DNA from: Narcine bancroftii
Lineage: Eukaryota
Direction of reading: 5' to 3'
DNA: 64,000 nt
Assembly: GCF_036971445.1 (NCBI RefSeq)
Contig: NC_091475.1
Location: forward strand, 156,612,001 to 156,676,000
The notes under the pieces were generated by a model that had not been told where the DNA came from, ran no database searches, and saw only the letters and a list, made by a program, of their open reading frames with translations. Every line of letters begins with the position of its first letter. Position 1 is the stretch's first letter. The translations under genes and the position numbers were made by a program. Below are positions 1,639 through 59,021 of this stretch, one piece after another.

Positions 1639-4600
1639 CCCAACCCTTTTTATCCATACCATCCTGTAATATTTGATACATAGATGAAATATAACCCTTC
1701 TCTGGTACCTTCATAAGAAAAGTCTCAAATTTAGTCATTTTAGGTAAAATCATATCTCTACCAAACATACATTTTACCAAAGATCGAATTTAATAATAAA
1801 GAAATAGAGTTCTTATCAATACCAAAACCTTCCCTCATCTGATTAAAAGATAAAAACTTACTCTCTTTAAAACATCTTCCAAATTTTTCACACCTTTAAA
1901 TCTCCAATGCAATAAACTTTGATTATGTATTGAAAAAGAAATAAGTTGATTATTATACAATGGAGTCAAAGCCGATAATTTACCCCTAGAGCCTGTCATT
2001 TTATTTTTCTTTATCCATAACTTCATTAAATGTTTTAGTATAGTCTCATTATATTGTTGTAACAAATTTATATTCCATCTAAACAAAAATTGATGTATTT
2101 CAAATTCAGAAATACTTGCCATCTCAATTTTAGCCGAATTAGGAGGCCGTACCAAATCCATCAATGAACTAATAAATTTAAGTTGGGCTGCTTCATAATA
2201 ATTTTGAAAATGTGGTAAACGTAATCCCTCTAACTCATATTTCCAAGTTAATTTATTCAAAGCTACTCTTGAAAATTTACCCCTCCATAAAAACTCTCTA
2301 ACCATTTTATTCAAATCTCAAAAAAAAATTTATCAAGTAAATACGGAATAGATTGAAACAAATATTGTATACGTGGAAAGTTATTGATCTTAATTGTATT
2401 TATCCTACCCATTAAATTAAAAGGTAAATCTTTCCATTTAATCAAATCAGTTTTAATTTTTTTGGTTAATGGAGTATAATTTCATTTATATAAAGATTGA
2501 TAATTAACATTCAAAATTATACCCAGATATTTAATTTGATCAGTCCACTTCAAATTAATAATATTCTTATAAACTGAATAATCTCCTTCACTTACCAGTA
2601 ATATTTCACTTTTTTCCCAATTAACTTTATATCCAGAAAGACATCCTTATTGTATTAAACATTCCTTCAAGTGCAAAAGTGACTGAGCTGGGTTTATTCA
2701 ATGCACCAATACATCATCAGCAAATAAATTAATTTTATACTCCTCATCTAAAACTTTCATACCTTGTATCTGTGTATTTTGTCTTATCAACTGTGCTAAA
2801 GGTTCAATCACTAACGCAAACAAAGCTGGTGATAAAGGACAACCTTGACAAGTTGATTGAGTTAACTTAAAGGATTCCGAAATCAAACCATTCGGTTTAC
2901 TATATAGAGCCCTAATCCAACCAATAAAAAAAGGACCAAACTTAAATTTCTCTAAAACTCTAAACAAAAAATTCCCTTCAACTCTATCAAATGCTTTTTC
3001 TCCATCTAAGGATATCACCATCGGATGATCTGAGGATTGTCGAAATCTATTAATCAAACTAATCATGCGCAAAATGTTATCTGAAGCATGTCTATTCTTT
3101 ATAAAACCTGTTTGATCAATATGAATCAACTTGGGTAAAAATTTAGCCAATCTATTCGCTAATATTTTAGCCATTTTATAATCTACATTTAACAACGAAA
3201 TTGTTCTATATGAAGTTACTTTCAAAGGACCTCTATCTTTTTTAGGAATTACTGTAATTAAAGCACTAGAACAAGACTCAGGTAATTCATAATGTTTTCC
3301 AACTTGACGTAATACATCCCCAAACACTGCAGATAAATCATCATAAAAAATTTTATAAAATTCAACCAAAAATCCATCATCACCAGGCGATTTACCGTTC
3401 AGCATTTCTAGCATAGCCATTTCAATTTCCAAATCAGTAAATGGTTCTTCTGACTCCTGTATATCTGCATCCTCTAATATCGGTAAATTCAACTGTGATA
3501 AAAAAAAGATCAATTGATCCAGTGTCTTGTTTTCCTTCAGAAGTATATAACTTTTTATAAAATGAATAAAATTCATCATTAAATCTCACGAGGTTTATAA
3601 GGAATAAGAAAATTCCGTCTAACAGCATTAATAGTATTCGAAATCTGTTCTTTCTTTAATTGCCACGCCAATACCTTATGTGCTTTCCCTCCCCATTCGT
3701 AATACCATTGTTTAGTCCAATTAATCACACATTCAAATTGATAAGATTGCAAAGTATTATATTCCAATTTCAGCCTAGATAATTCTATTTTCTAATCTTC
3801 TGTAGCCTCTTTCTGAAATTCCTTTTCTAACTCATCAATCTGTTTTTCTAATTCAAGACTCAGATTTAATTGATTCTTTTCTATTTTAGAAGTATAACTA
3901 ATTATTTGTCCTCTCAAATAGGCTTTCATAGCATCCCATAATACAAACTTACTTTGAACAGAATTAGAATTTTCTTTCAAAAAAAATTAATTTGTTTTTT
4001 CAAAAAAAATCAATAAATTCCATTTTTAACAACATTGTATTAAACCTCCAATGATAAGCCATTTGAATTTTCTCAGAAGTTGCAAATATAAAATATAACA
4101 AAAAGTGATCTGAAATCACCTTACTTTTATATTCCGCTTGTAGTATTTTCCTTTAAATGTGCCGATACTAAAAAGAAGTCAATCCTCGAAAACGATTCAT
4201 GTCATTTCTCTGTCGGATTAAGACGTCTCCAAATATCTACTAAATTAAGATCTTTCATCAACGCTTGGACCTGAATTGCCATCTTGGATTTCTTAACTTT
4301 CTTCGGAGATTTATCTAATAAAGATTCCAAAACACATTTAAAATCACCACCAACTAAAATATTATCATTAGCCTGACCCAAACATAAAAATGCATCTGAA
4401 ATAAATATTTCATCATCTGCATTTGGGCCATAAATATTAAGTAAAGTCTAAAATTCACTAAAAATCTTACAATTCAATTTAAGAATACATCCTGTCTTTT
4501 CCTCCATTGATTGTAATTCAAAAGATAAATTTTTATGTATCAAAATTGCTACATCTTTAGCTCTAGAATTAAATGAAGAAGAATATACATGCCCAATCCA

Positions 4601-4788: not shown

Positions 4789-5715
4789 TTCTTCTTTGGC
4801 TTGGCTTCGCGGACGAAGATTTATGGAGGGAGTAAAAAGTCCACGTCAGCTGCAGGCTCGTTTGTGGCTGACAAGTCCGATGCGGGACAGGCAGACACGA
4901 TTGCAGCGGTTGCAGGGGAAAATTGGTTGGTTGGGGTTGGGTGTTGGGTTTTTCCTCCTTTGCCTTTTGTCAGTGAGGTGGGCTCTGCGGTCTTCTTCAA
5001 AGGAGGTTGCTGCCCGCCAAACTGTGAGGCGCCAAGATGCACGGTTTGAGGCGTTATCAGCCCACTGGCGGTGGTCAATGTGGCAGGCACCAAGAGATTT
5101 CTTTAGGCAGTCCTTGTACCTTTTCTTTGGTGCACCTCTGTCACGGTGGCCAGTGGAGAGCTCGCCATATAACACGATCTTGGGAAGGCAATGGTCCTCC
5201 ATTCTGGAGACGTGACCCATCCAGCGCAGCTGGATCTTCAGCAGCGTGGACTCGATGCTGTCGACCTCTGCCATCTCGAGTACTTCGACGTTAGGGATGT
5301 AAGCGGTCCAATGGATGTTGAGGATGGAGCGGAGACAACGCTGGTGGAAGCGTTCTAGGAGCCGTAGGTGGTGCCGGTAGAAGACCCATGATTCGGAGCC
5401 GAACAGGAGTGTGGGTATGACAACGGCTATGTATACGCTTATCTTTGTGAGGTTTTTCAGTTGGTTGTTTTTCCAGACTCTTTTGTGTAGTCTTCCAAAG
5501 GCGCTATTTGCCTTGGCGAGTCTGTTGTCTATCTCATTGTCGATCCTTGCATCTGATGAAATGGTGCAGCCGAGATAGGTAAACTGGTTGACCGTTTTGA
5601 GTTTTGTGTGCCCGATGGAGATGTGGGGGGGCTGGTAGTCATGGTGGGGAGCTGGCTGATGGAGGACCTCAGTTTTCTTCAGGCTGACTTCCAGGCCAAA
5701 CATTTTGGCAGTTTC
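4789..5715 (-). mobile_element. RTE-clade LINE, copy 2, 5'-truncated
   Basis: ORF 4846..5703 is near-identical to the other copies and has a GAA-type tail. Possible 5-bp TSD ATAAT (4784-4788 / 5716-5720). It sits in the L1 inter-ORF spacer. Confidence 0.92.
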
Positions 5716-6535
5716 ATAATATCTTTATAGAAAAACTCAAATCAATGTATATAGGCCCTCCAATAGAAAAAAAAAAATCACAAATTAAAAACTAACAAGA
5801 AAATTAAAAAAATAAAGAAAAAAAAAGAAAATCCCCCCCCAAAAAAACCCACCAAAAGGTAGTAATCCCCTAAACAAAAATTGGGTGTGGGTCACCCACC
5901 AGTGGCTGATGACTAGTAAAGAACTTAACGCAAATCTCTCCCTCCCCAGCCAAACAATCAATAACATCAAAATATCATAACAAAAAAAATGGAATAAGAA
6001 AATTCTTCTTTTCATCCAAAAGATTCCAATCTCGGAGATCCCATTTCAGAAGGGGGTAGACTCTTTCCATTTCCGTTTTTCCCCATTTCTGCCATTTCTT
6101 CCGTTTCTGGAACAACCAGATTTTTCTTTAGGAAATAATGGTGGACTACGTCTTTGTCCTCTTATATCTGGCAATGAATCAGCAAAAATCATTGCTTCAT
6201 GTTCATTTTCAAAAAACCGAAATTGATAGTCTCCATAAAACACCTTCAACACTGCAGGGTAGCGAAAAGTAGACTTATAACCTTTACGCCACAAAACTTC
6301 TTTAACTGGATTGAATCGACGTCGACGTTGAATGACCTCTTGACTCAAATCAGGATTTTAAAAATCTCTGCTATTCTGAATCAATAACTGAGTTTGTTGT
6401 CTCGCATTTTGTACTGCGAGTCGAAGTATTGCTTCTCTGTCCAAATAACTCAAACATCGAATTATTACCGGTCTCGGTGGTTGACCAGCTGAGGGTGTTC
6501 TTCTTAAAGCTCTATGGGCTCTTTCCAGTACCTCT

Positions 6536-14985: not shown

Positions 14986-17109
14986 CAGTGCCCTCCATGA
15001 GGGCCCTTTATTTGCCCCTGTGCACCACAGTTTTAAATTTGTAATCAAATAATTCATGTGATTAAAGTGCACATTCAGATTTTATTAAAGTTTATTTGTA
15101 TACAATTTGGTTTGACCACGTTGAAGTTGCAACATTTTTTATACATAGCCCCATCATTTCAGGGCAACAATATTTGGGGCAGAGCAATGTACCTTAAAGT
15201 AGTCATGTTTAGTACTCTTGCATAAACTTTGCATGCAATGTCTGCTTGAAGTCTGTGATTCATGAACATCACCAGATGCTGAGTATCTTCTCTGATGATG
15301 CTCTGCCAGGCCTCTTCTCCAGTCATCTTTGGCTCCTGCTTGTTTTGGGGGCTTGTCCCCTTAAGTTTTCTCTTCAGCATATGGAAGGCATGTTCAGTTG
15401 GACTTAGATCAGGTGACTTGCTTGGCCATACAGTAATTTTCCAATTTTTAGCTTTGGAAAAACTCCTTTGTTGTTTTAGCAGTATGTTTGAGTTCATTGT
15501 CTTGCTGCAGGTTGAAGCACCATCCAATGAGTTTGGAGGCATCTGCTTGAAATTGAGCTGGTAAGATATTTTTATACACCTCAAATTAAGTTTGCTTCTG
15601 CCATCAGCAGTTACATAATCATTAAAAATAAGTGGACCAGAACCTGTGTCAGCTGAACATGTTGAGGCCATAAAACCACCACGACCATGTTTCACAGATG
15701 AGGTGGTATGCTTCAGATCTTGGGCAGTTCCTTTATGCCTTCACAATTTGCTCTTGCCATCACTCTGATATTAGTTAATCTTGGTCTCATTTGTCCACAA
15801 GAGCTTTTTCCAGAATTTTGCAGGCTCTTTTAAATCGATCTCGGTAAACTGTAACTGTGCCTCACTGGTGGTTTGCATCTTACATTTTAGCCTCTGTATT
15901 TCTGTTCATGAAGTTTTCTGCAGGCTCATAATGGCTTTTTTGACTTTCATATGCACAACTCCAGTCATTATGTTGAAAAATGGTGACTACAGACTCCAAA
16001 GGTGGTCAAAATCTTAGAAGCAAGCCTAGCTCTCTGATACTGTAGGCCATTTCATAATCGAGATGTAAAGGCAGAGAAACTCTGCCAAAATGCATAATCA
16101 CCTAGCTTTCTGAATGTGCCGAGGCGGTCTCTGAGCCGCATATTCCAACCCCTCTCTGAGCGGGATAATCTCCACAGCACAGCCCTCCGCCGTTCTATCT
16201 GAATGTACAGCTGCGATAAGTGGCTGTTTAGGGTGGACTGATGATGGCGTCAGCCCACGACCCATCTCCCCAATAGTTAATGTTCTGATAAAATAGCCCC
16301 AAATGGACCCCTCACCCCTCTCCCTCCAAGTCAGGGCTGGCAGGGCAGCGGTAGCCCTTGGCGCAGCAGGGGCTGTCGGGACACCGGGGGCCATTGGGGC
16401 AGCAGGAGCTGTCAGTGGGGCCCATCCGGCAGGGGGTGGCTGGTGCAGGCTGGGACAGCCAAACCAGGCCCTTTTGGCTTCAGGGCCGCTCTCTGCGGCT
16501 CAAAATGCGGCAGAGCAATGACAGGCTTTCCTACCTATAATCTTTCATGCAACTGGAACTGTTATGGGAACCATAGAGTGGTTTTAGCTGCGTGGGGATT
16601 ATGGGTAGGGAATACGACCATCTCTCTGCCGCATATTTATGACGGTTGGCACTATGGCACCAGTCGCCCCACTTCCATTGGATCTGGAGGGTGCTACAAG
16701 GCACCTCTGGATATGAATGGGATGCTGGAGCAGCCTTTTAGGGCTGCTGTCTGAAAAGTACATTCCCGTTTTTCCATCGGCTCCATAGCCAGTCTCAAGG
16801 CAGAGGCCCGACATGAAATGGCCTTGTATCTGCAGCAATGAAGCAATTAAACATACCTGAGTAATCACAAACATCTTTGAAGCCATGTGTTCCAAAAATT
16901 ATGGTGCCCTAAAATGGGAGAACTATGTATAAAAAGTGCTGTAATTTCTACATGGCCAAACCAAAATGTATATAAATAACCAAAATAAAATGTGGAATGT
17001 GCACTTTAATCACATGTGAATTGTTTGATTACAAATTTAAATTTATGAACCACAGGGGCAAATAAAGGATAAAAAATTGTCTTTGCTCCAAATGTTATGG
17101 AGGGCACTG
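14986..17109 (-). mobile_element. Tc1/mariner transposon with decayed transposase and long TIRs
   Basis: TA|CAGTGCCCTCCAT ... ATGGAGGGCACTG|TA with ~200-bp inverted ends. The Tc1 motif WPSKSPDLSPTEHAF is in ORF 15159..15695. Confidence 0.92.
16044..16824. mobile_element. GC-rich non-autonomous DNA transposon (PIF/Harbinger-like MITE) nested in the Tc1
   Basis: Perfect 12-bp TIR AGGCCATTTCAT (16044-16055) / ATGAAATGGCCT (16813-16824), flanked by TGT on both sides (3-bp TSD). Tc1 sequence resumes after it. Confidence 0.72.
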
Positions 17110-19052: not shown

Positions 19053-19348
19053 GATGAAAATCAAACGTGCTTTAGTTACAATGACACAGAGGCTGGAGAG
19101 AAAATATGGAATGGTAGTGATCGGATGGAAACCAAACGTGCTTTAGTTACAATGACACAGAGGCTGGAGAGAAAATATGGAATGGTAGTGATGGGATGGA
19201 AATCAAATGTGCTTTAGTTACAATGACACAGAGGCTGGAGAGAAAATATGGAATGGTAGTGATCGGATGGAAATCAAACGTGCTTTAGTTACAATGACAC
19301 AGAGGCTGGAGAGAAAATATGGAATGGTAGTGATCGGATGGAAACCAA
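19053..19348. repeat. Tandem repeat, 71-bp unit x ~4.1
   Basis: Unit positions 19061, 19132, 19203, 19274 and 19345, near-identical. Confidence 0.95.
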
Positions 19349-19859
19349 GGAGAAAATAATTCAAGTGTTGATGATGTTGGCTGAGAAAAAGTGATAAAGA
19401 CTTGTTAATTGTTCTTAATCTATCTATGAGATGAATTTGAAGAGAGAAAAATGCTGGAACTGTGAGATATAAATGGAGATCGTTGTTGGAAGTAAAGGGA
19501 TATATCTGGCATGACTGGTAGAAGAATAGACATTCTCTTTGTTCTCTCCACTATTCTCCTGGAACTTAAAGCATATTATTCCTGGTTATAATAACTAATA
19601 GCTTCAAGTTATAACCCTGTTTCCACCTCTGTAGGTGCTGCTAGATCTGCTGACTCAGCATTTTTTTCTTTTTTATTCTGGATCATTAGTCAAGTGGTAG
19701 GAGCTTGATTTGATATATTGGCAGAAGTAGTGTTCTCGGAACATAGATACAGTGTTGTAAGCAGATAAATGTGGTCATCCATGAGTCAATGACTGCTGTC
19801 TGCAGAAGACTTCATAAACAGAAATACAGAGGCTAGACTGCAAGATACAAACCATGGCA

Positions 19860-20880: not shown

Positions 20881-23314
20881 ACCAGACTGATATCTACTTT
20901 ATTGATTTTGAATATTTTGGGTACTTTTTCAGGCAAACAATGCACCTGAAATGCATATGTGCACACCAGTGTTTCTAGAATGGACAGAATGATACCTTAG
21001 AAATCAGTAGTTCTTTTGAATGATATCAGTTCCAACTCAATCAGTGACAAACCAGAAGCCATTGATGGAAATAAGAGACACATGGAGGAGCTGAGGTATA
21101 TTTTTGCTGTAAATTGCATAATTCCCACGTGCTGTGAGCACATAGTGTTAGCTAAATTGTCAGAGCACATTTTGTCCAGGTTGGCATCAAGTGACCTTGC
21201 GTTACGGTTGACATAACTGTGCTTATTTTGCATAGTGCCAGTGTGTGTATATAAAACATGTCCTAAAGTACTGTTCAAATTACTGCAAACAAATACAGAT
21301 TCAATTTTTAAAACAAAATTGAAAGCAATTTGACAATAATGGCAGTGGTATTAACAGTAAAACAGGGCCTGAGTGTATAATCTAGAGTACTTTTATACCC
21401 ACTAATTCCCTCCTGGGCATTCTTTTTGACAAGCAAGAAATTTTTGATTTAGATGTGCAGCAATGAAAATTGGATTGTCTCTTTCATGGCTGTATACAGT
21501 CTTTTACATCTGTGTTTTGTCAGATGGGAAGAGAAAAAAGTGATATATCGTGTATCATCAATTTTTTTTGTACTTTAGTTGTGAAGGTTAAATTAAATTG
21601 AGCATCGGGAATTAAATTTGCTGTTTCAGTCTGCTTTGTTTCGCATTAAATCTGGAATGTTTACTTTTTAAAACTCATTTACCATTAGAGTAAAAAAAAA
21701 TAACTGTACAATGGTGCATGAACAATTGGGATGCTGGAAATCTGAAATGTAAATGAAAAATGCTTGAAATATTCAGCCGGTCAGGCAGGCCTACTAGAGA
21801 GAAAAGTGTAGCATTTCAGGTCAATGACCTTTCATCAATCAGTGTGTCATTGACATTTAGGTCCAAATGCAGAGAAATCTTTACTGTAAAATGTGAATAG
21901 AAAATATATGGAAGTGCTTACATGTCAAAGCAATATTGAAATAAAACTAATTGTGCCACTCCAGTGGTTTGATAATCAGAAAGTGCTCTTTATTAGATAA
22001 CTGATTCTGGTTTCCATGACAAAATGCTTCTCTTCCTGCAAAAAATACAGCTTATATTTGGAAAGCTTTTTGAAGCCTTGACGATAGTTTTTGGGTGATT
22101 CATAAGCCATGTGTTACCATGGTCATATTGACGCTGTTGTCATTAATGTTACCTGATTGAAGGAGAGTCAAGGATTTATTTTAATAGCCCGATCAAAATG
22201 AGTGCTGTGTAATCATAAGGAGGATGAATGAAAATGTGATTCATGGAATTTCTGGTTGTCGACATCAGGGCTGCTCATGAACACCCTTTTCATTCTTTTT
22301 AATTTATATGTTATATATCAGTTGGAAAATATTAGCAGGTTTAAGAAAAGATTTAGAGGACCTGAGGTAAATCTCTTCACGTGCCAGTGACACGCATGAG
22401 CAAATTAGTGCATATTTTTTAAAATATTGAGTTTAACATATAAGCATAAATACATATGAATCTTTATATAATTGTCAATTCTGTATACAAGTAACATGCA
22501 CAATAAAAAGCCAATTAAAAAAATAGATAAAATTACATCAATACGTATAATAACTCAAAAACATTTAATGGAAATTATCTCTGCAACCAAGTTATTTCAA
22601 ATTAGTGCATACTAAGAAGCAATTTACTTCAGAACTATCCCCAAACCATTAGACATCTCACACTTAACTAAGGTGGTGGTTAGATTTAACCAGAGTTTAC
22701 CGTACTATGCTGTATTTCTTTCATCCACTTCAAGACCAACAATGCACATTAAATGACAATTAATGCAGGTGGCACTGAAATGGAGGGAATCTGATAATTT
22801 TCCATAACTTAAAGTATGCTTGCTAAAGTAAAATACCAACTTGTGGCAAATATTTTTGCTCATATTTATAGATCTGTGAGCATATATAACAAGAGAGCAG
22901 AAAAAGCTGGGAGATTCTGTTTAAGACAAAATGTTTAATTGTTCACGGGAATATAGATCATTATAAATGCTGAAGTAAATTCAGTTTGATCCTTATTCCT
23001 GTCTGCAATGGATGTTTTTCGATTGGGTGTATGCAAGGCTTCTGAAATTAATTATTGTTCATTCAGCAAATTGGGAAATGTTTATTGGCATTGTTCTGTA
23101 CAAGAATTGTGATAACACTTTGCAAAGACTACAAAGCTAATTTGACTATCGATTAAGATGTGAATCTTTTGCCTATGGGTTTAATAAAATGATAACAGCT
23201 CAAATTCAGGTAGTGAAAGTGAATTAATAACATCAGCAGTGGTTTACTCCAGTGTTCTGACAAATATATTTATCATAAATTGAGACTTTTCCCTGAATGT
23301 GCTGGGACTTTTTC

Positions 23315-23809
23315 TCCTTGGAACTTAGAAGGTTGAGGGGAACCTTACAGAGGTGTATGAAATCATGAGGGGAATAGATAAGGTAAAGAGTTTTAGTTTA
23401 TTTTCCAAGGGCATCCTTGGAACTTAGAAAGTTGAGGGGAACCTTACAGAGGTGTATGAAATCATGAGGGGAATAGATAAGGTAAAGAGTTTTAGTTTAT
23501 TTTCCAAGGGCATGCTTGGAACTTAGAAGGTTGAGGGGAACCTTACAGAGGTGTATGAAATCATGAGGGGAATAGATAAGGTAAAGAGTTTTAGTTTATT
23601 TTCCAAGGGCATCCTTGGAACTTAGAAGGTTGAGGGGAACCTTACAGAGGCGTATGAAATCATGAGGGGAATAGATAAGGTAAAGAGTTTTAGTTTATTT
23701 TCCAAGGGCATCCTTGGAACTTAGAAGGTTGAGGGGAACCTTACAGAGGTGTATGAAATCATGAGGGGAATAGAGAAGGTAAAGAGTTTTAGTTTATTTT
23801 CCAAGGGCA
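23315..23809. repeat. Tandem repeat, 99-bp unit x 5 (CR1-derived)
   Basis: Unit starts 23315, 23414, 23513, 23612 and 23711, with only a few substitutions. Confidence 0.95.
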
Positions 23810-23966
23810 GTGGAGCTAAAATTGGGAACAATATGAAAGGGATCTGTGGAGTACACAGAGGGAGGAAGTTTTATGGAATGAGCTTCCAAAATAAATGGTA
23901 GAGGTGGCCATAATTGTTGTATTTCAGTTACATTTGGACAGATACATGGATGGGAAAAGTTTAGAG

Positions 23967-24321
23967 CAGTGGTTCTCAACCTTTTTCTTTCCACTCACAT
24001 ACCATTTTAAGTATTCCCTATGCCATAGGTGCTCTGTGATTAGTAATGGATTGCTTAAGGTGGTATGTGGGTGGAAAGAAAAAGTTTGAAAATCTAATTG
24101 GCTCATTACGTGCACAGTTTCATAACTCTGAAAGAAATGGGCCAATGACAATTTTTCTCAAGCATTTGCTAGACACAATTGTGTCTAGAACAGTGATTCA
24201 CAACCTTCTCTTCCCACTCACATGCCACCTTAAGCAATCCCATATTAATCACAGAGCACTGATGGCATAGGGATGACTTAAACTGGTATGTGAATGGAAA
24301 GAAAAAGGTTGAGAACCACTG
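23967..24321. mobile_element. hAT-type MITE with nested palindromic structure, inserted in a CR1 3' end
   Basis: TIR CAGTGGTTCTCAACCTTTTTCTTTCCA at both ends with ~125-bp inverted arms. The TSD is not cleanly preserved. Confidence 0.8.
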
Positions 24322-24819: not shown

Positions 24820-26120
24820 CACTGACCACTGATGGCAAAAAATTAAGATTGTTAGGGAAAACACATTTCACCAGATTATAGGTTTTTAAAAAGATATCTT
24901 ACCCATTGCAGAATAAAGAATTCCAAAGAATGTAATTGTTTAAGATCAGTTATCCTTTGCCATTTGTTTTCAATATACACCAGAAATGTGTAGACATTAT
25001 CTTAATCATTACACCTTACCTCTCAATTCAATCTCCTTTAATAGCATCTCAAATCCCGAATCCAGATTTATCTTTTTGGAAAATTCAGAATTAATTTATA
25101 ACTAAAGTGAAGCTCTATTTGAATTTGTTGAACATGCATGACTCTTTCAATGCAACGTTTTCTGGATCTGTCTCAACTTTATAAACCTTTTGACATCACT
25201 GGTTCTAGAAGTTGAAATGGAAACTCATTTGAGGACTCTTTCTTTACTCATTATTTATTATTGAATATTTATCTTTCTGTATTGCACAGTTTGTTTACAT
25301 TTATTTATTTTTTATATATTTTTTATTCTTGAGCACAGTTTACCACACCAGTAATTAGAAATTCTGCCTTGCTCACAGTAAAAAGAATCTCAGGATTGCA
25401 TGTGATGTCATGTATGTGATCTGACAATAAATTGAATTTTGAATTAAAATAGCAAGCTATCACCCATCAAGGAAGTTCTTAATAATTATCAAAATAATAT
25501 TACTAATGAAGCTATACTGTATATTGGAGAACACAATAAAGACAGGTGCTTATTATAAAAAGTGAATTAAATAATATTTTATTGTTCATGATGGTATAAA
25601 GGAAAATGGCATCCACATACAAAAATTCTGGTTTCCAAGGTGATGTTCATTAGGTGTTATCTGAAGTGGTGAGTGGGAATATCCTGCTTAAGTAGGATTA
25701 GTAAAGACTTCATCTGATGAGTATGTGTATTTGGAATATCTCTGTAGATCTATAAATCTCTCAATTTGTAATTAAATGGCTTTGTATATTTCTGTGGTAG
25801 AACCAGGGGCACTGTGGTGTAAACAATAATCATATCGACATGATGGAGTGATTAAACGGCTTTAATTGCCAAAAACCTGAGCATTACTGATACACTTCTT
25901 GGCCAGGTTCCAGATACAAGAGCAAGAGAGGGCAAGTCCAGAGATGCCAGCCTTTATTGGGAAATCAGGGGAGGAGCCAAGGGAGGGGTTAGGGAAGATC
26001 AGGGAGGTTCGGACTGGCCAGTCCTTACATCTATACAAATGCCTTTCACCACATTCACCCCTCCTTTGAGATAAATCCTGGCGGGTGATGTGGTGACATG
26101 GAACACATACTGTACTTTGC

Positions 26121-26162: not shown

Positions 26163-26615
26163 GTTCATAGAGTCGATCACAGGTGCAGCCTGTCCAGTGG
26201 TCTCGTGATCTTCTGTGACTTCCAAGGCGCTGGGTGAGGCCCCTTTTTGTGATCGAGCTGGCAGGACTGTGTATCTGTGTGGGTGGAATTAGAGTTATAG
26301 AGTCCTTTGGTGCCTGTTGTGGTGGTTTACCCCGCTGTTTGTTGTTAAACATAAATGCAATGGCCCTCTGGTCCATCAGCAGGGTAAATGGTCTACCAGC
26401 CAAATAATACCTCCAGTGGCGCACAGCTTCCACTATGACCTATGTCTTTTTCTCAATTGCTGAGTTTCGGATTCTGGAGTGTTCTAGAGAAAATTGCCAC
26501 TGGCCTGCCTGCCTGATTCAGCGTGGCTGCCAGGGTAACATCAGAGGCTTCACTTACCACTTGGAATGGGATGGATTCATCAATGGCCTGCATCACCACC
26601 TTGGCAATCTCATTC

Positions 26616-26955: not shown

Positions 26956-28289
26956 AGTTTGATGCCTACCCGACAGTACACACACATCTCTGCGGACTGG
27001 GCTTTAGATGCCAGGGATATTCATCTCTTTTCCGGAGACACCTTCAGTGTACAGCGCTTTATTAAGTCCGGGTGGATAAAATTTTCGGTGCTCCCTGTGT
27101 CAAACAAACAACCCGTGACGCGACCATTTACCTCAATGTTCATCATCAATTGCACCAGCTGGTGAGGCCTGTTCTGATCCAGCGTCACAGAGGCCAGGAT
27201 TAGCTCCAATTCAGAGTTACCATTGTACCGTTCCTGTCAGTAATATGTCGGGCTTGGTGCCTCAGAAGATGGCCGCCCCCAGTACATGCACATGGCTGGG
27301 ACCTGAGGTGAAGTTAGCAATCGCTGATCCAAAGCCAGAAGTGATGTTAGTGATCGTCGTCTTAATGTTGATGACCCATCCCTCGGATTGCACACAGCAT
27401 TGCTGGTAGTGAGCTTCCCCCATCACACCTTCAAATAGTGCCCTTTCTCTTTGCAATTTGAGTGAGCACACTGCGTTCTTGGCCAGGCAGGACTTCTGGG
27501 GGTGCCTGGCCAGCCCGCAGAACCCGCACTTCCCAGTCCCAACTGCCACTGGTGCCATATCCCAACATAGTGGCACCCTCATACCGCATGCAGACGCTGG
27601 ACCGCTGGCAGTGTGAGCCTCACAGCTTTGCACCACAGTCTCCATTGCCTCCCCCAAGTCCTTCTTGCAATGTGGAGTTACCTTTTTCAACAGCATCCCT
27701 TAGGTTGTAGTGGCGCATGAACATCTGCATCCCGTGCAGCCACCTCTCGAAGGTAAAATCTGCGTTGGGCTCCCTGGATTCAATCGTGAGCGTGGTTGGC
27801 CGGCAAACGTCTCCCATTACCCGCTGCAGAGTTGATGTAGACCCCAGGGATGCGACCACTACTGCACCTCTTGGTTGGGCTGACTTCACCATCTGTGGGC
27901 TGGGTGACCAGGCAACTTTCTGATCGCTGCTGCTTTGTCCTGTATGCTGAGTTTCCATGACTTTTGTTTTGGTAATTAAATTGTGGTGCACACAATAATC
28001 ACATTGACATGATGGAGTGATTAAATGGCTTTAATTACCAAAAACCTGAGCATTACTGATATACTACTGGCCTGGTTCCAGGTACAGGAGCAAGAGAGGA
28101 CAAGTCCAGGCACGCTAGCCTTTATTAGGAAATCCGGGGAGGAGCCAAGTGAGGAATTAGGGAAGGTCAGGGAGGTTCAGACTGGCCAGCGGATACATCT
28201 ATACAAATGCCTTTCACCACAGGTATTTCCATATCTTCTTGTTCTTGTTTTCCATTGCAATGAGTACTTAATTTCTTTCCACCTAGACT

Positions 28290-28945
28290 TTTGACTTCTT
28301 TTCATGAAGTCTTCTGCAGAGATTAGTCTTTGGCATATCCACACCTGTGTGCCGAACGGTGCTTCTGAACTGTCAGCCATGTGTTTGGGGACTTTTCTTC
28401 AAACTCATAAGAATTCTTCTCTCATCAGCAATGGAGTTCTTCATTGAAATACCAGCCTCTTTGAGATTACTGAGCTCACCAGTATGCTTTTTATTCTTAA
28501 TGACGTACAAAACTGTTGAATTTGGTAATCCTAAGATTTGAGTGATAACTCTTACAGTTTTAATCTTGAATTTCAGCCTCATAATGGCTTCTTTGACTTT
28601 CATTGGCACAACCCTGGTCTTCTTGTTGAAAAATGGCAACTACAGGCTCCAAAGATGACCAAAAGCTTATTAGCCAGATAAGCTCTCTTATACCTGCACT
28701 AATTAAGCATACCTGATCACTCACAAACACTTGTGAAGCTAAATGTCCCAAATACTATGGTGCCCTGAAATGAGGGGACTATGTCTAAAAGGTCAAACCA
28801 AAATGTATACAAATAACCCTGAATAAAATCTGGAATGTGCACTTTAATTACATGTGAATTGTTTGATTACAAAATTAAAACTGTGGAGCAAAGGGGCCAA
28901 TAAAGGAAAAAAAGTGTCTGTCCTGAACATCATGGAAGGCACTTA
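28290..28945 (-). mobile_element. Tc1 fragment (transposase N-terminus plus TIR)
   Basis: ORF 28373..28639 (TRVVPMKVKEAIMRL...LGLPNSTV) and a TIR copy ending near CATGGAAGGCACT. Confidence 0.8.
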
Positions 28946-56875: not shown

Positions 56876-57442
56876 TACCATATATTTAGTAAGAACTAGA
56901 ATTATCTAATTTTAATTTCTGTTAAGGTGTTTTCAATGTCTAAACCAATGCAAGAGTAAACCAAAGACATTTGGTCCCAAGTTGATGAATTCCCACATCT
57001 CCATGCTCAGAAACACAGCAAGTTCTTAGTAGCTGGTTATCCAGTATAATATAAGCCCAAAAAATCCTCTCCAATCTCTACGGGATCTTCTCACGTCAAT
57101 GTCCTTGCTGCTGCTTCAACTCTCCACCTACTCCTGTTCTACCTTTCAACCTTACCAGCTGTCAGGCCAGTAGTTTGAATGCTTGTGAATACCCTTGGCA
57201 TTCATATGCATTTCCACATGTTCCTACATATTCACAAACTATTAAAATATTTTACATTGCAAAAAGCTAGGAAACACAAAGGTAATTAAATGCATTCAAT
57301 AAATTCAAAAAAGCTGTAAATGCCCTAACTTGCTTGATTCCCTTTCCATTTACATTGAAGTGAATGGAACTGCTGAACCTGCAGCATGTATAACCTGGCA
57401 AAGACTGAGTAGGTAGATTTCCCTCATTGCTATTTTGGTTAA

Positions 57443-59021
57443 ACTGCTCAAACTACAGGGGAATCACGTTGCTCTCCATTGCAGGCAAAATCTTCGCTAG
57501 GATTCTACTAAATAGAATAATACCTAGTGTCGCTGAGAATATTCTCCCAGAATCACAGTGCGGCTTTCGCGCAAACAGAGGAACCACTGACATGGTCTTT
57601 GCCCTCAGACAGCTCCAAGAAAAGTGCAGAGAACAAAACAAAGGACTCTACATCACCTTTGTTGACCTCACCAAAGCCTTCGACACCGTGAGCAGGAAAG
57701 GGCTTTGGCAAATACTAGAGCGCATCGGATGTACCCCAAAGTTCCTCAACATGATTATCCAACTGCACGAAAACCAACAAGGTCGGGTCAGATACAGCAA
57801 TGAGCTCTCTGAACCCTTCTCCATTAACAATGGCGTGAAGCAAGGCTGTGTTCTCGCACCAACCCTCTTTTCAATCTTCTTCAGCATGATGCTGAACCAA
57901 GTCATGAAAGACCCCAACAATGAAGACGCTGTTTACATCCGGTACCGCACGGATGGCAGTCTCTTCAATCTGAGGCGCCTGCAAGCTCACACCAAGACAC
58001 AAGAGAAACTTGTCCGTGAACTACTCTTTGCAGATGATGCCGCTTTAGTTGCCCATTCAGAGCCAGCTCTTCAGCGCTTGACGTCCTGCTTTGCGGAAAC
58101 TGCCAAAATGTTTGGCCTGGAAGTCAGCCTGAAGAAAACTGAGGTCCTCCATCAGCCAGCTCCCCACCATGACTACCAGCCCCCCCACATCTCCATCGGG
58201 CACACAAAACTCAAAACGGTCAACCAGTTTACCTATCTCGGCTGCACCATTTCATCAGATGCAAAGATCGACAATGAGATAGACAACAGACTCGCCAAGG
58301 CAAATAGCGCCTTTGGAAGACTACACAAAAGAGTCTGGAGAAACAACCAACTGAAAAACCTCACAAAGATAAGCGTATACAGAGCCGTTGTCATACCCAC
58401 ACTCCTGTTCGGCTCCGAATCATGGGTCCTCTACCGGCACCACCTACGGCTCCTAGAACGCTTCCACCAGCGTTGTCTCCGCTCCATCCTCAACATCCAT
58501 TGGAGCGCTCACACCCCTAACGTCGAGGTACTCGAGATGGCAGAGGTCGACAGCATCGAGTCCACGCTGCTGAAGATCCAGCTGCGCTGGATGGGTCACG
58601 TCTCCAGAATGGAGGACCATCGCCTTCCCAAGATCGTATTATATGGCGAGCTCTCCACTGGCCACCGTGACAGAGGTGCACCAAAGAAAAGGTACAAGGA
58701 CTGCCTAAAGAAATCTCTTGGTGCCTGCCACATTGACCACCGCCAGTGGGCTGATAACGCCTCAAACCGTGCATCTTGGCGCCTCACAGTTTGGCGGGCA
58801 GCAGCCTCCTTTGAAGAAGACCGCAGAGCCTACCTCACTGACAAAAGGCAAAGGAGGAAAAACCCAACACCCAACCCCAACCAACCAATTTTCCCTTGCA
58901 ACCGCTGCAATCGTGTCTGCCTGTCCCGCATCGGACTGGTCAGCCACAAACGAGCCTGCAGCTGACGTGGACTTTTTACCCCCTCCATAAATCTTCGTCC
59001 GCGAAGCCAAGCCAAAGAAGA
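57443..59021 (+). mobile_element. RTE-clade LINE, copy 4, 5'-truncated with uninterrupted RT ORF
   Basis: ORF 57427..58965 ([38 protein letters not shown]-terminal zinc-finger-like motif). 11-bp TSD ATTTTGGTTAA at 57432-57442 and 59022-59032. Confidence 0.95.

Follow-up and report, generated by a model that had tools for sequence, protein, structure and literature searches.

A lineage-wide RNA stem predicted at the LTR-leader junction of Gypsy elements, most likely used for self-primed reverse transcription

The window analysed here, a 64,000-nucleotide stretch of DNA from Narcine bancroftii, carries a decayed and internally deleted LTR element of 2.4 kb on its minus strand, and all features of the element given below are on that strand. 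Its 5′ LTR (27982-28221) is 240 bp long, is bounded by TG...CA, and is identical at 213 of 240 aligned bases to the 3′ LTR (25813-26053). Between the two LTRs are located a likely gag ATG that lies 23 nt past the LTR end (27956-27958), the first CCHC knuckle of a decayed gag (27487-27528), a protease remnant with the residues LFDTGSTENFI (26973-27203), RNase H remnants in two frames (26326-26605), and a polypurine tract that ends in AA and precedes the 3′ LTR (26054-26067). The protease and RNase H pieces match an intact relative, represented by protein P0001, and gag remnants are also left; no piece of RT or integrase matching this relative was found in the window copy. An initial annotation of the same DNA described a two-knuckle gag, which is what P0001 carries, whereas the window copy retains one complete knuckle and a second that is out of frame. 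The element is bordered by a possible decayed 5-bp target-site duplication, in which three of five bases match (28222-28226 and 25808-25812). Clean 5-bp duplications are present at five of six young relatives that were checked, and the sixth is ambiguous.

Other repeats are also found in the window. Fragments of LINE reverse transcriptases and remnants of Tc1-like transposons, labelled by eye, lie around the element (359-1710, 2698-3585, 4846-5724, 57409-58965, 15159-15740 and 28274-28912). In addition, there are tandem arrays at 23216-23908 (99-nt unit) and 19053-19407 (71-nt unit), and a 120-nt inverted repeat at 23967-24321 whose arms are 88% complementary and separated by 115 nt.

At the junction between the 5′ LTR and the leader, one unpaired spacer base (A at 27981) separates the terminal CA of the LTR from the primer-binding-site position (27967-27980), which is the exact reverse complement of an LTR segment (28030-28043) that we call the LTR arm. 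The resulting 14-bp stem closes a loop of 49 nt, comprising 48 LTR bases and the spacer, precisely as the initial annotation had claimed. Also present are the other features that it listed, namely ATTAAA within the arm, a second AATAAA at 28121-28126 and the LFDTGSTENFI residues. The 3′ end of the arm pairs beside the LTR end and is directed into U5. Only two other perfect stems of at least 14 bp with loops of at most 100 nt occur in the 64-kb window, one of which is an AT repeat. Only 32 of 200,000 shuffled LTRs contained a chance partner for as few as 10 of the 14 bases, and on this basis a chance origin of the stem was rejected. Folding of the region from 27950 to 28100 gave a z value of -2.15, with 4 of 200 shuffles equally good. 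The primer-binding position begins with TTT rather than TGG, and its best tRNA match is only 4-5 nt in a comparison with an incomplete set of 14 host tRNA genes representing 10 amino-acid types.

The last six bases of the arm (28030-28035) read ATTAAA, which is a likely poly(A) signal. Given the second AATAAA farther upstream, the choice between the two hexamers had originally been left uncertain. In families of this host, a TATA-like word is located 74-96 nt upstream of the end of the hexamer (flagged in 7 of 18, and TATAAG-like by eye in others), and in the sister families initiator-like words follow about 30 nt after the TATA-like words. From this spacing, we infer that the AATAAA at 28121-28126 belongs to a promoter word, AATAAAGG (28119-28126), which is TATA-like and is placed relative to initiator-like words as in the sister families, and that the ATTAAA of the arm is the signal. 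Transcription is predicted from the TATA-like word to start at about 28085-28100, and in this host 30-50 nt upstream of the arm. Among the 14 other-host representatives, the scan flagged no TATA-like word.

Folding also predicts an inner helix (27988-28029) that begins with GCC straight after the arm, and the predicted cut site discussed below is located between 28030 and 28029. The bases after the arm have a mean pairing probability of 0.63 in 32 representatives, versus 0.32 in loop shuffles. For the window copy the value is high (0.85); the inner helix of several representatives is weak, among them those of a young family (0.29-0.37, L082). A helix between the loop and downstream sequences was not above shuffles (6.8 versus 7.2). 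In 29 of the 32 representatives, an ATG is located 14-35 nt downstream.

Some rearranged copies were observed as well. In a young element (L077:4208-4397), the 5′ LTR stops exactly after AATAAAA of the arm and is followed by the LTR end in inverted orientation, with the break located at the predicted cut site, and locus L220 exhibits another inverted LTR arrangement. An A-rich loose end in contigs (L082:1660) was not upheld on re-examination.

A search of the genome from which the window derives gave 1094 candidates for the same family, of which 40, picked by likeness to the window, were scored. The stem is kept in these copies, averaging 13.1 of 14 pairs, and is perfect in 15 of them. Because the copies were found by their likeness to the window, they demonstrate conservation and not covariation. 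A second search, with an RNase H query, returned 39,543 candidates in the genome, and among 20 fetched loci there are at least five families that have different LTRs and the same layout. The LTRs of the young family (L082 type) share 98-100% identity, its coding sequence is one long reading frame, and at least 964 of its junctions are present in the genome.

A pattern fixing only AATAAAGCC and CAATTTATT yielded 1248 matches in the genome versus 0 for a control. Seventy of these loci were examined, comprising 30 as returned and 40 hand-chosen from the first 100 for varied loops. Across eight unselected positions, 6.94 of 8 pair within a copy versus 4.04 across copies. When one locus that is not an element was dropped, the remaining 69 gave 7.01 of 8, compared with a permutation mean of 4.16 and a maximum of 4.71 in 2000 permutations. 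Compensatory covariation between the arms, which the initial annotation had named beforehand as a test, is therefore evident. All four pair types are present at positions 1, 2 and 4, and pairing drops beyond eight to nine unselected positions, which indicates a stem of 14-15 bp. The site is hypervariable, with 38 different first 6-mers beyond the core among the 70 loci.

The hexamer of the arm follows the same trend. AATAAA is paired with TTTATT 1248 times, versus 43 times with the mismatched TTTAAT. An ATTAAA version of the pattern gave 2882 matches, other repeats included, versus 2 for its control; among 30 of these loci examined, the 21 that are lineage-like pair at 6.05 of 8 positions and the nine other repeats at 2.9 of 8. 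A GTTAAA version gave seven matches in the genome, none of them lineage-like by eye, and in the patterns tested for this host the arm hexamer alternates only between AATAAA and ATTAAA.

In 27 disjoint pairs of copies, differences per site in the stem (0.185 and 0.167) compared with those in the LTR flanks (0.125) reveal that the stem is no better conserved. Compensated transversions amount to 0.019 versus 0.002 expected, an approximately 10-fold excess (four events in 216 sites). One-sided changes in these pairs (22 and 18) outnumber compensated changes (11), an excess that decay after insertion predicts and that plain selection also allows. Two copies that are 98-99% identical (L197 and L199) are distinguished by a single compensated pair, which is seen in the site and in the arms of both LTRs. 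Among 16 young copies picked for variants there was no compensated change, and one of them combined a variant shared by both arms with an unaltered site.

Related proteins are widespread, forming 108 clusters at E values up to 1e-30. Host names were taken from 10 looked-up clusters, four of which are named, and these come from two rays, Trichinella and Cydia moths. From metagenomes, 80 loci were fetched and 44 scanned. A stem is present in 25 of the 44, at the LTR-leader junction in 21 cases and elsewhere in four, and none was obtained from 19, in several cases because the contig ends early. Both LTRs could be located at 16 loci, of which 14 were scored and the other two have a degenerate stem by eye. 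Nineteen of the 21 junction stems begin one base after CA, and the other two carry an inner mismatch. Although loop length varies (20-65 nt), the position of the stem relative to the terminal CA is constant. In all 14 other-host representatives, the final bases of the arm are TAAA (TAAAA in one), followed by ACC, GCC or GCT, and AATAAA or ATTAAA is present in the arm of only six, with neither hexamer in the remaining eight. Pairing in L075 extends over only seven contiguous pairs.

Scans of viral contigs gave nothing related, or only four distant elements, and the clusters obtained from the ESM Atlas were all of a generic RT/RNase H kind. The four contigs from a viral collection (L270-L273) are 5.2-5.5 kb in length, circularly permuted and Gypsy-like, and three of them group as a separate clade in trees. 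At a separate locus (L213:94-362), the LTR end and leader occur twice in tandem, such that the site at the primer position is duplicated.

On the basis of domain order, TG...CA LTRs and 5-bp duplications, the lineage belongs to the Ty3/Gypsy LTR retrotransposons. P0001 has the order Gag-PR-RT-RNase H-IN and two CCHC knuckles of the form CX2CX4HX4C, and its best solved relative is Ty3 (E 2.5e-63). The element had been suspected to be non-chromoviral, and this view is supported by the lack of a chromodomain. In the tree described below, the lineage is not nested among five decayed chromovirus copies of this genome. No match to Chromo or SH3_Tf2-1 was obtained in P0001, P0152 and P0154 at E 0.1, or in P0018, P0019, P0058 and P0121 at E 0.01. 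A control from the same genome (L279) matches SH3_Tf2-1 and, weakly, Chromo.

An RT-RNase H tree was built with 36 rows, leaving out 28 of 64 aligned rows as short or redundant (20 of 64 in another tree). The lineage forms one clade (100/100) on a long stem, apart from the chromovirus, Mag-type, Gmr1-type and CsRn1-like rows of this genome, for which the labels rest on domain order, a weak Chromo match in a relative, and primer motifs that we assume to be diagnostic. The lineage and the five decayed chromovirus copies are each supported at 100/100, and their sister relationship at only 63/35, in a tree whose chromovirus rows all come from this genome. The lineage is also apart from Mag in the best tree, though grouping the two is not rejected (p-AU 0.445); the Mag-type controls of this genome were found by what we take to be the Mag primer motif. 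The single row that we presume to be CsRn1-like from its primer motif (L292) is a long branch outside the clade. We conclude that these elements constitute a separate, deep clade of Gypsy that lacks a chromodomain.

Several named groups were considered as homes for this clade. The window LTR ends fit the CsRn1 motif TGTGGYG...MSYYAMA as tabulated in PMC3601003 (Table 3), and the ends of the sister families differ. Troyka was rejected, given that the available account (PMC12440569) describes CG...CG ends, a 3-bp duplication and a CX2CX8-10HX4C knuckle, versus TG...CA, 5 bp and CX2CX4HX4C here. Saci2/lennie was rejected by comparison with published descriptions, in which there is a tRNA primer site, versus no TGG here; the lennie site is given as a tRNA-Leu type in the accessible portions of PMC4558846 and PMC12471100. 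The lineage could be one of the MolGy clades that appear in the available part of PMC6238403.

Three further observations were made on the proteins and elements of this genome. The RT motif is YxDN instead of YxDD in 29 of 61 motif matches (P0001 residues about 883-886; P0002-P0173), including the young intact family. An active RT that lacks the second aspartate would be unusual, and a literature search on the YLDN motif found nothing relevant. Members of the young family (L082:1586-6025) encode a tandem repeat rich in Ala and Thr, together with a short peptide that recurs, between gag and protease (P0001 residues about 370-455 and 505-525), and the length of the frame varies between copies from about 1400 to 1540 aa. 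Lastly, an abundant Gmr1-type family (L275-L293), in which integrase precedes RT, has a TGG in its leader only several bases past the LTR end.

The start point of minus-strand synthesis determines where an LTR ends. A helix located one base from this end, with its 3′ end directed into U5, is best read as a primer, and because the letters of the site vary and follow the LTR, a single tRNA cannot fit. The complementarity, fixed register and covariation of the LTR arm point to it as the predicted self-primer, and the earlier claim that a tRNA-type primer site is missing is supported. We consider it probable that elements across this lineage use a Tf1-like form of self-priming, in which the LTR arm would act as the primer after a cut just behind the hexamer, without a tRNA. 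In the proposed mechanism, once the arm has paired with the site that follows the LTR, cleavage of the RNA immediately behind the final TAAA of the arm (between TAAA and RCY) would release a 3′ end from which reverse transcription would begin. The stretch from the cut to the poly(A) site would provide the overlap for the strand jump, and plus-strand copying of the primer would write changes in the arm into the next site. The excess of compensated transversions and the L197/L199 pair are consistent with such copying, and selection alone may also account for the compensated changes. Where the hexamer is the true signal, the same helix would hide the poly(A) signal of the 5′ LTR. Weighing against self-priming are the 16 young variant copies without compensation, a predicted start that is not at the arm, and the absence of a Tf1-type third duplex. 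The initial annotation had proposed that a start at 28043 would support priming and that one near 28095 would favour masking, which is a false choice, because a start upstream still allows cutting and priming.

The original statement was that the hairpin can form only at the 5′ LTR. A second copy of the arm, with one substitution in the window element, is present in the 3′ LTR and could pair with the site over a long range. The primer could thus be the identical arm of the 3′ LTR, paired in cis to form a circle or on a partner RNA, and cut behind the hexamer with loss of the poly(A) end. This route would make use of the presence of the arm in both LTRs, of its location just before the predicted RNA 3′ end, and of a predicted start well upstream of the 5′ arm, and sequence covariation cannot separate the two copies of the arm. 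We nevertheless regard it as unlikely, because the 5′ arm is only 20-65 nt away, forms the local minimum-energy fold and would occupy the site first.

We consider it improbable that the stem is instead regulatory, hiding the 5′ poly(A) signal or controlling access to the gag start, with priming achieved by other means. Such a role would suit the near-exclusive use of AATAAA (1248) or ATTAAA (2882) in this host, where GTTAAA is practically absent (7), the U/G-rich sequence after the hexamer, and the proximity of the ATG noted above; retroviruses, too, must silence a 5′ signal, according to the available text of PMC3694450. However, both AATAAA and ATTAAA are missing from the arm in eight of 14 other-host representatives, and an AATAAA lies free in the loop of L191. 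Moreover, a constant distance to the terminal CA is not required for masking, the 3′ LTR in any case needs the hexamer to function as a signal, and no alternative primer site remains. Masking, which had been put forward alongside tRNA-independent priming, is thereby weakened as the main purpose of the stem. Given that the hexamer is nearly always AATAAA or ATTAAA in this host, it may be a side function there. The least credible explanation by far is that priming at the site is carried out by a host tRNA, a half-tRNA or another small RNA and that the LTR match is secondary, since the site starts with TTT, its letters vary freely with the LTR and its best tRNA match is 4-5 nt, even though the tRNA set compared was incomplete and half-tRNA priming exists in Copia lineages (PMC6317226).

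With these alternatives weighed, we return to self-priming by the LTR arm as the likeliest function, as the initial annotation had suggested, and we view the lineage as sharing a predicted RNA structure that most likely serves self-primed reverse transcription, a judgement drawn from sequence comparisons. We lean slightly against a broader reading in its entirety, in which a deep unnamed Gypsy clade of rays, a nematode, moths and other hosts would prime without tRNA apart from the chromoviruses, its internal primer would end at the poly(A) hexamer, and one helix would mask the 5′ signal, then be cut to prime, and then template the next primer site.

To our knowledge, self-primed reverse transcription has been proven so far only in yeast Tf1. 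Some Repbase entries reportedly call animal Gypsy families self-primed, and we found no description of the present layout in the open full-text literature, a search that lies outside Repbase and GyDB. Self-priming is treated as a mark of Tf1/sushi among Gypsy elements. If it is used by a second abundant animal clade, then self-priming would have arisen again or would be older than thought, and priming would be coupled to the poly(A) signal. Host defence can involve tRNA fragments aimed at primer sites, which such elements would escape; they would also be overlooked by annotation tools that depend on a tRNA site. With at least 964 young junctions in the genome, the predicted cut could be mapped directly in host RNA.

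Among known systems, the lineage resembles Mag-lineage Gypsy elements in its short LTRs and two-knuckle gag, which are typical of Mag, but the Mag-type elements of this genome have a TGG site where TTT is present here. Skipper of Dictyostelium and fungal GalEa are likewise LTR elements without a TGG site, although the available text of PMC5006619 and PMC5445492 reports no complementary LTR segment, which is the defining feature here. HIV-1, foamy virus and MoMLV carry a signal in both LTRs and must keep the 5′ one silent, and a title cited in the same source refers to an HIV-1 R-region hairpin (PMC3694450). As described there, however, retroviruses keep a tRNA site, and suppression in HIV-1 and foamy virus works through a splice donor and U1 snRNP, whereas here the partner strand is the predicted primer site. 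For the TAR lineage of plant Ty1/copia elements (Houba, Osr-1), self-priming was also predicted from LTR-site complementarity outside the chromoviruses; these belong to another superfamily and other hosts, and a link to a poly(A) hexamer is not mentioned in the accessible part of that report (PMC6317226).

The closest precedent is Tf1, for which self-priming is described as proven (PMC4600332, PMC10085805). As far as the available accounts extend (PMC10085805, PMC4600332, PMC6317226), Tf1 and Tf2 of Schizosaccharomyces pombe and the other Tf1/sushi elements (Tj1, Tosmo1-3, Tcry1 and Tcn1) share three features with the present lineage: a tRNA site is lacking, part of the LTR is complementary to the site that directly follows the terminal CA, and a further helix adjoins this pairing. 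Although the lineage would work like Tf1, it lacks both the chromodomain of Tf1/sushi and the three-duplex pretzel of Tf1, having only the central duplex and one inner helix, and we therefore do not file it in that group. It also falls in a separate clade. Moreover, the Tf1 primer is the 5′ end of the RNA, whereas the arm of the present elements is predicted to be internal, with transcription starting 30-50 nt upstream, and its 3′ terminus is a fixed TAAA, often the poly(A) signal.
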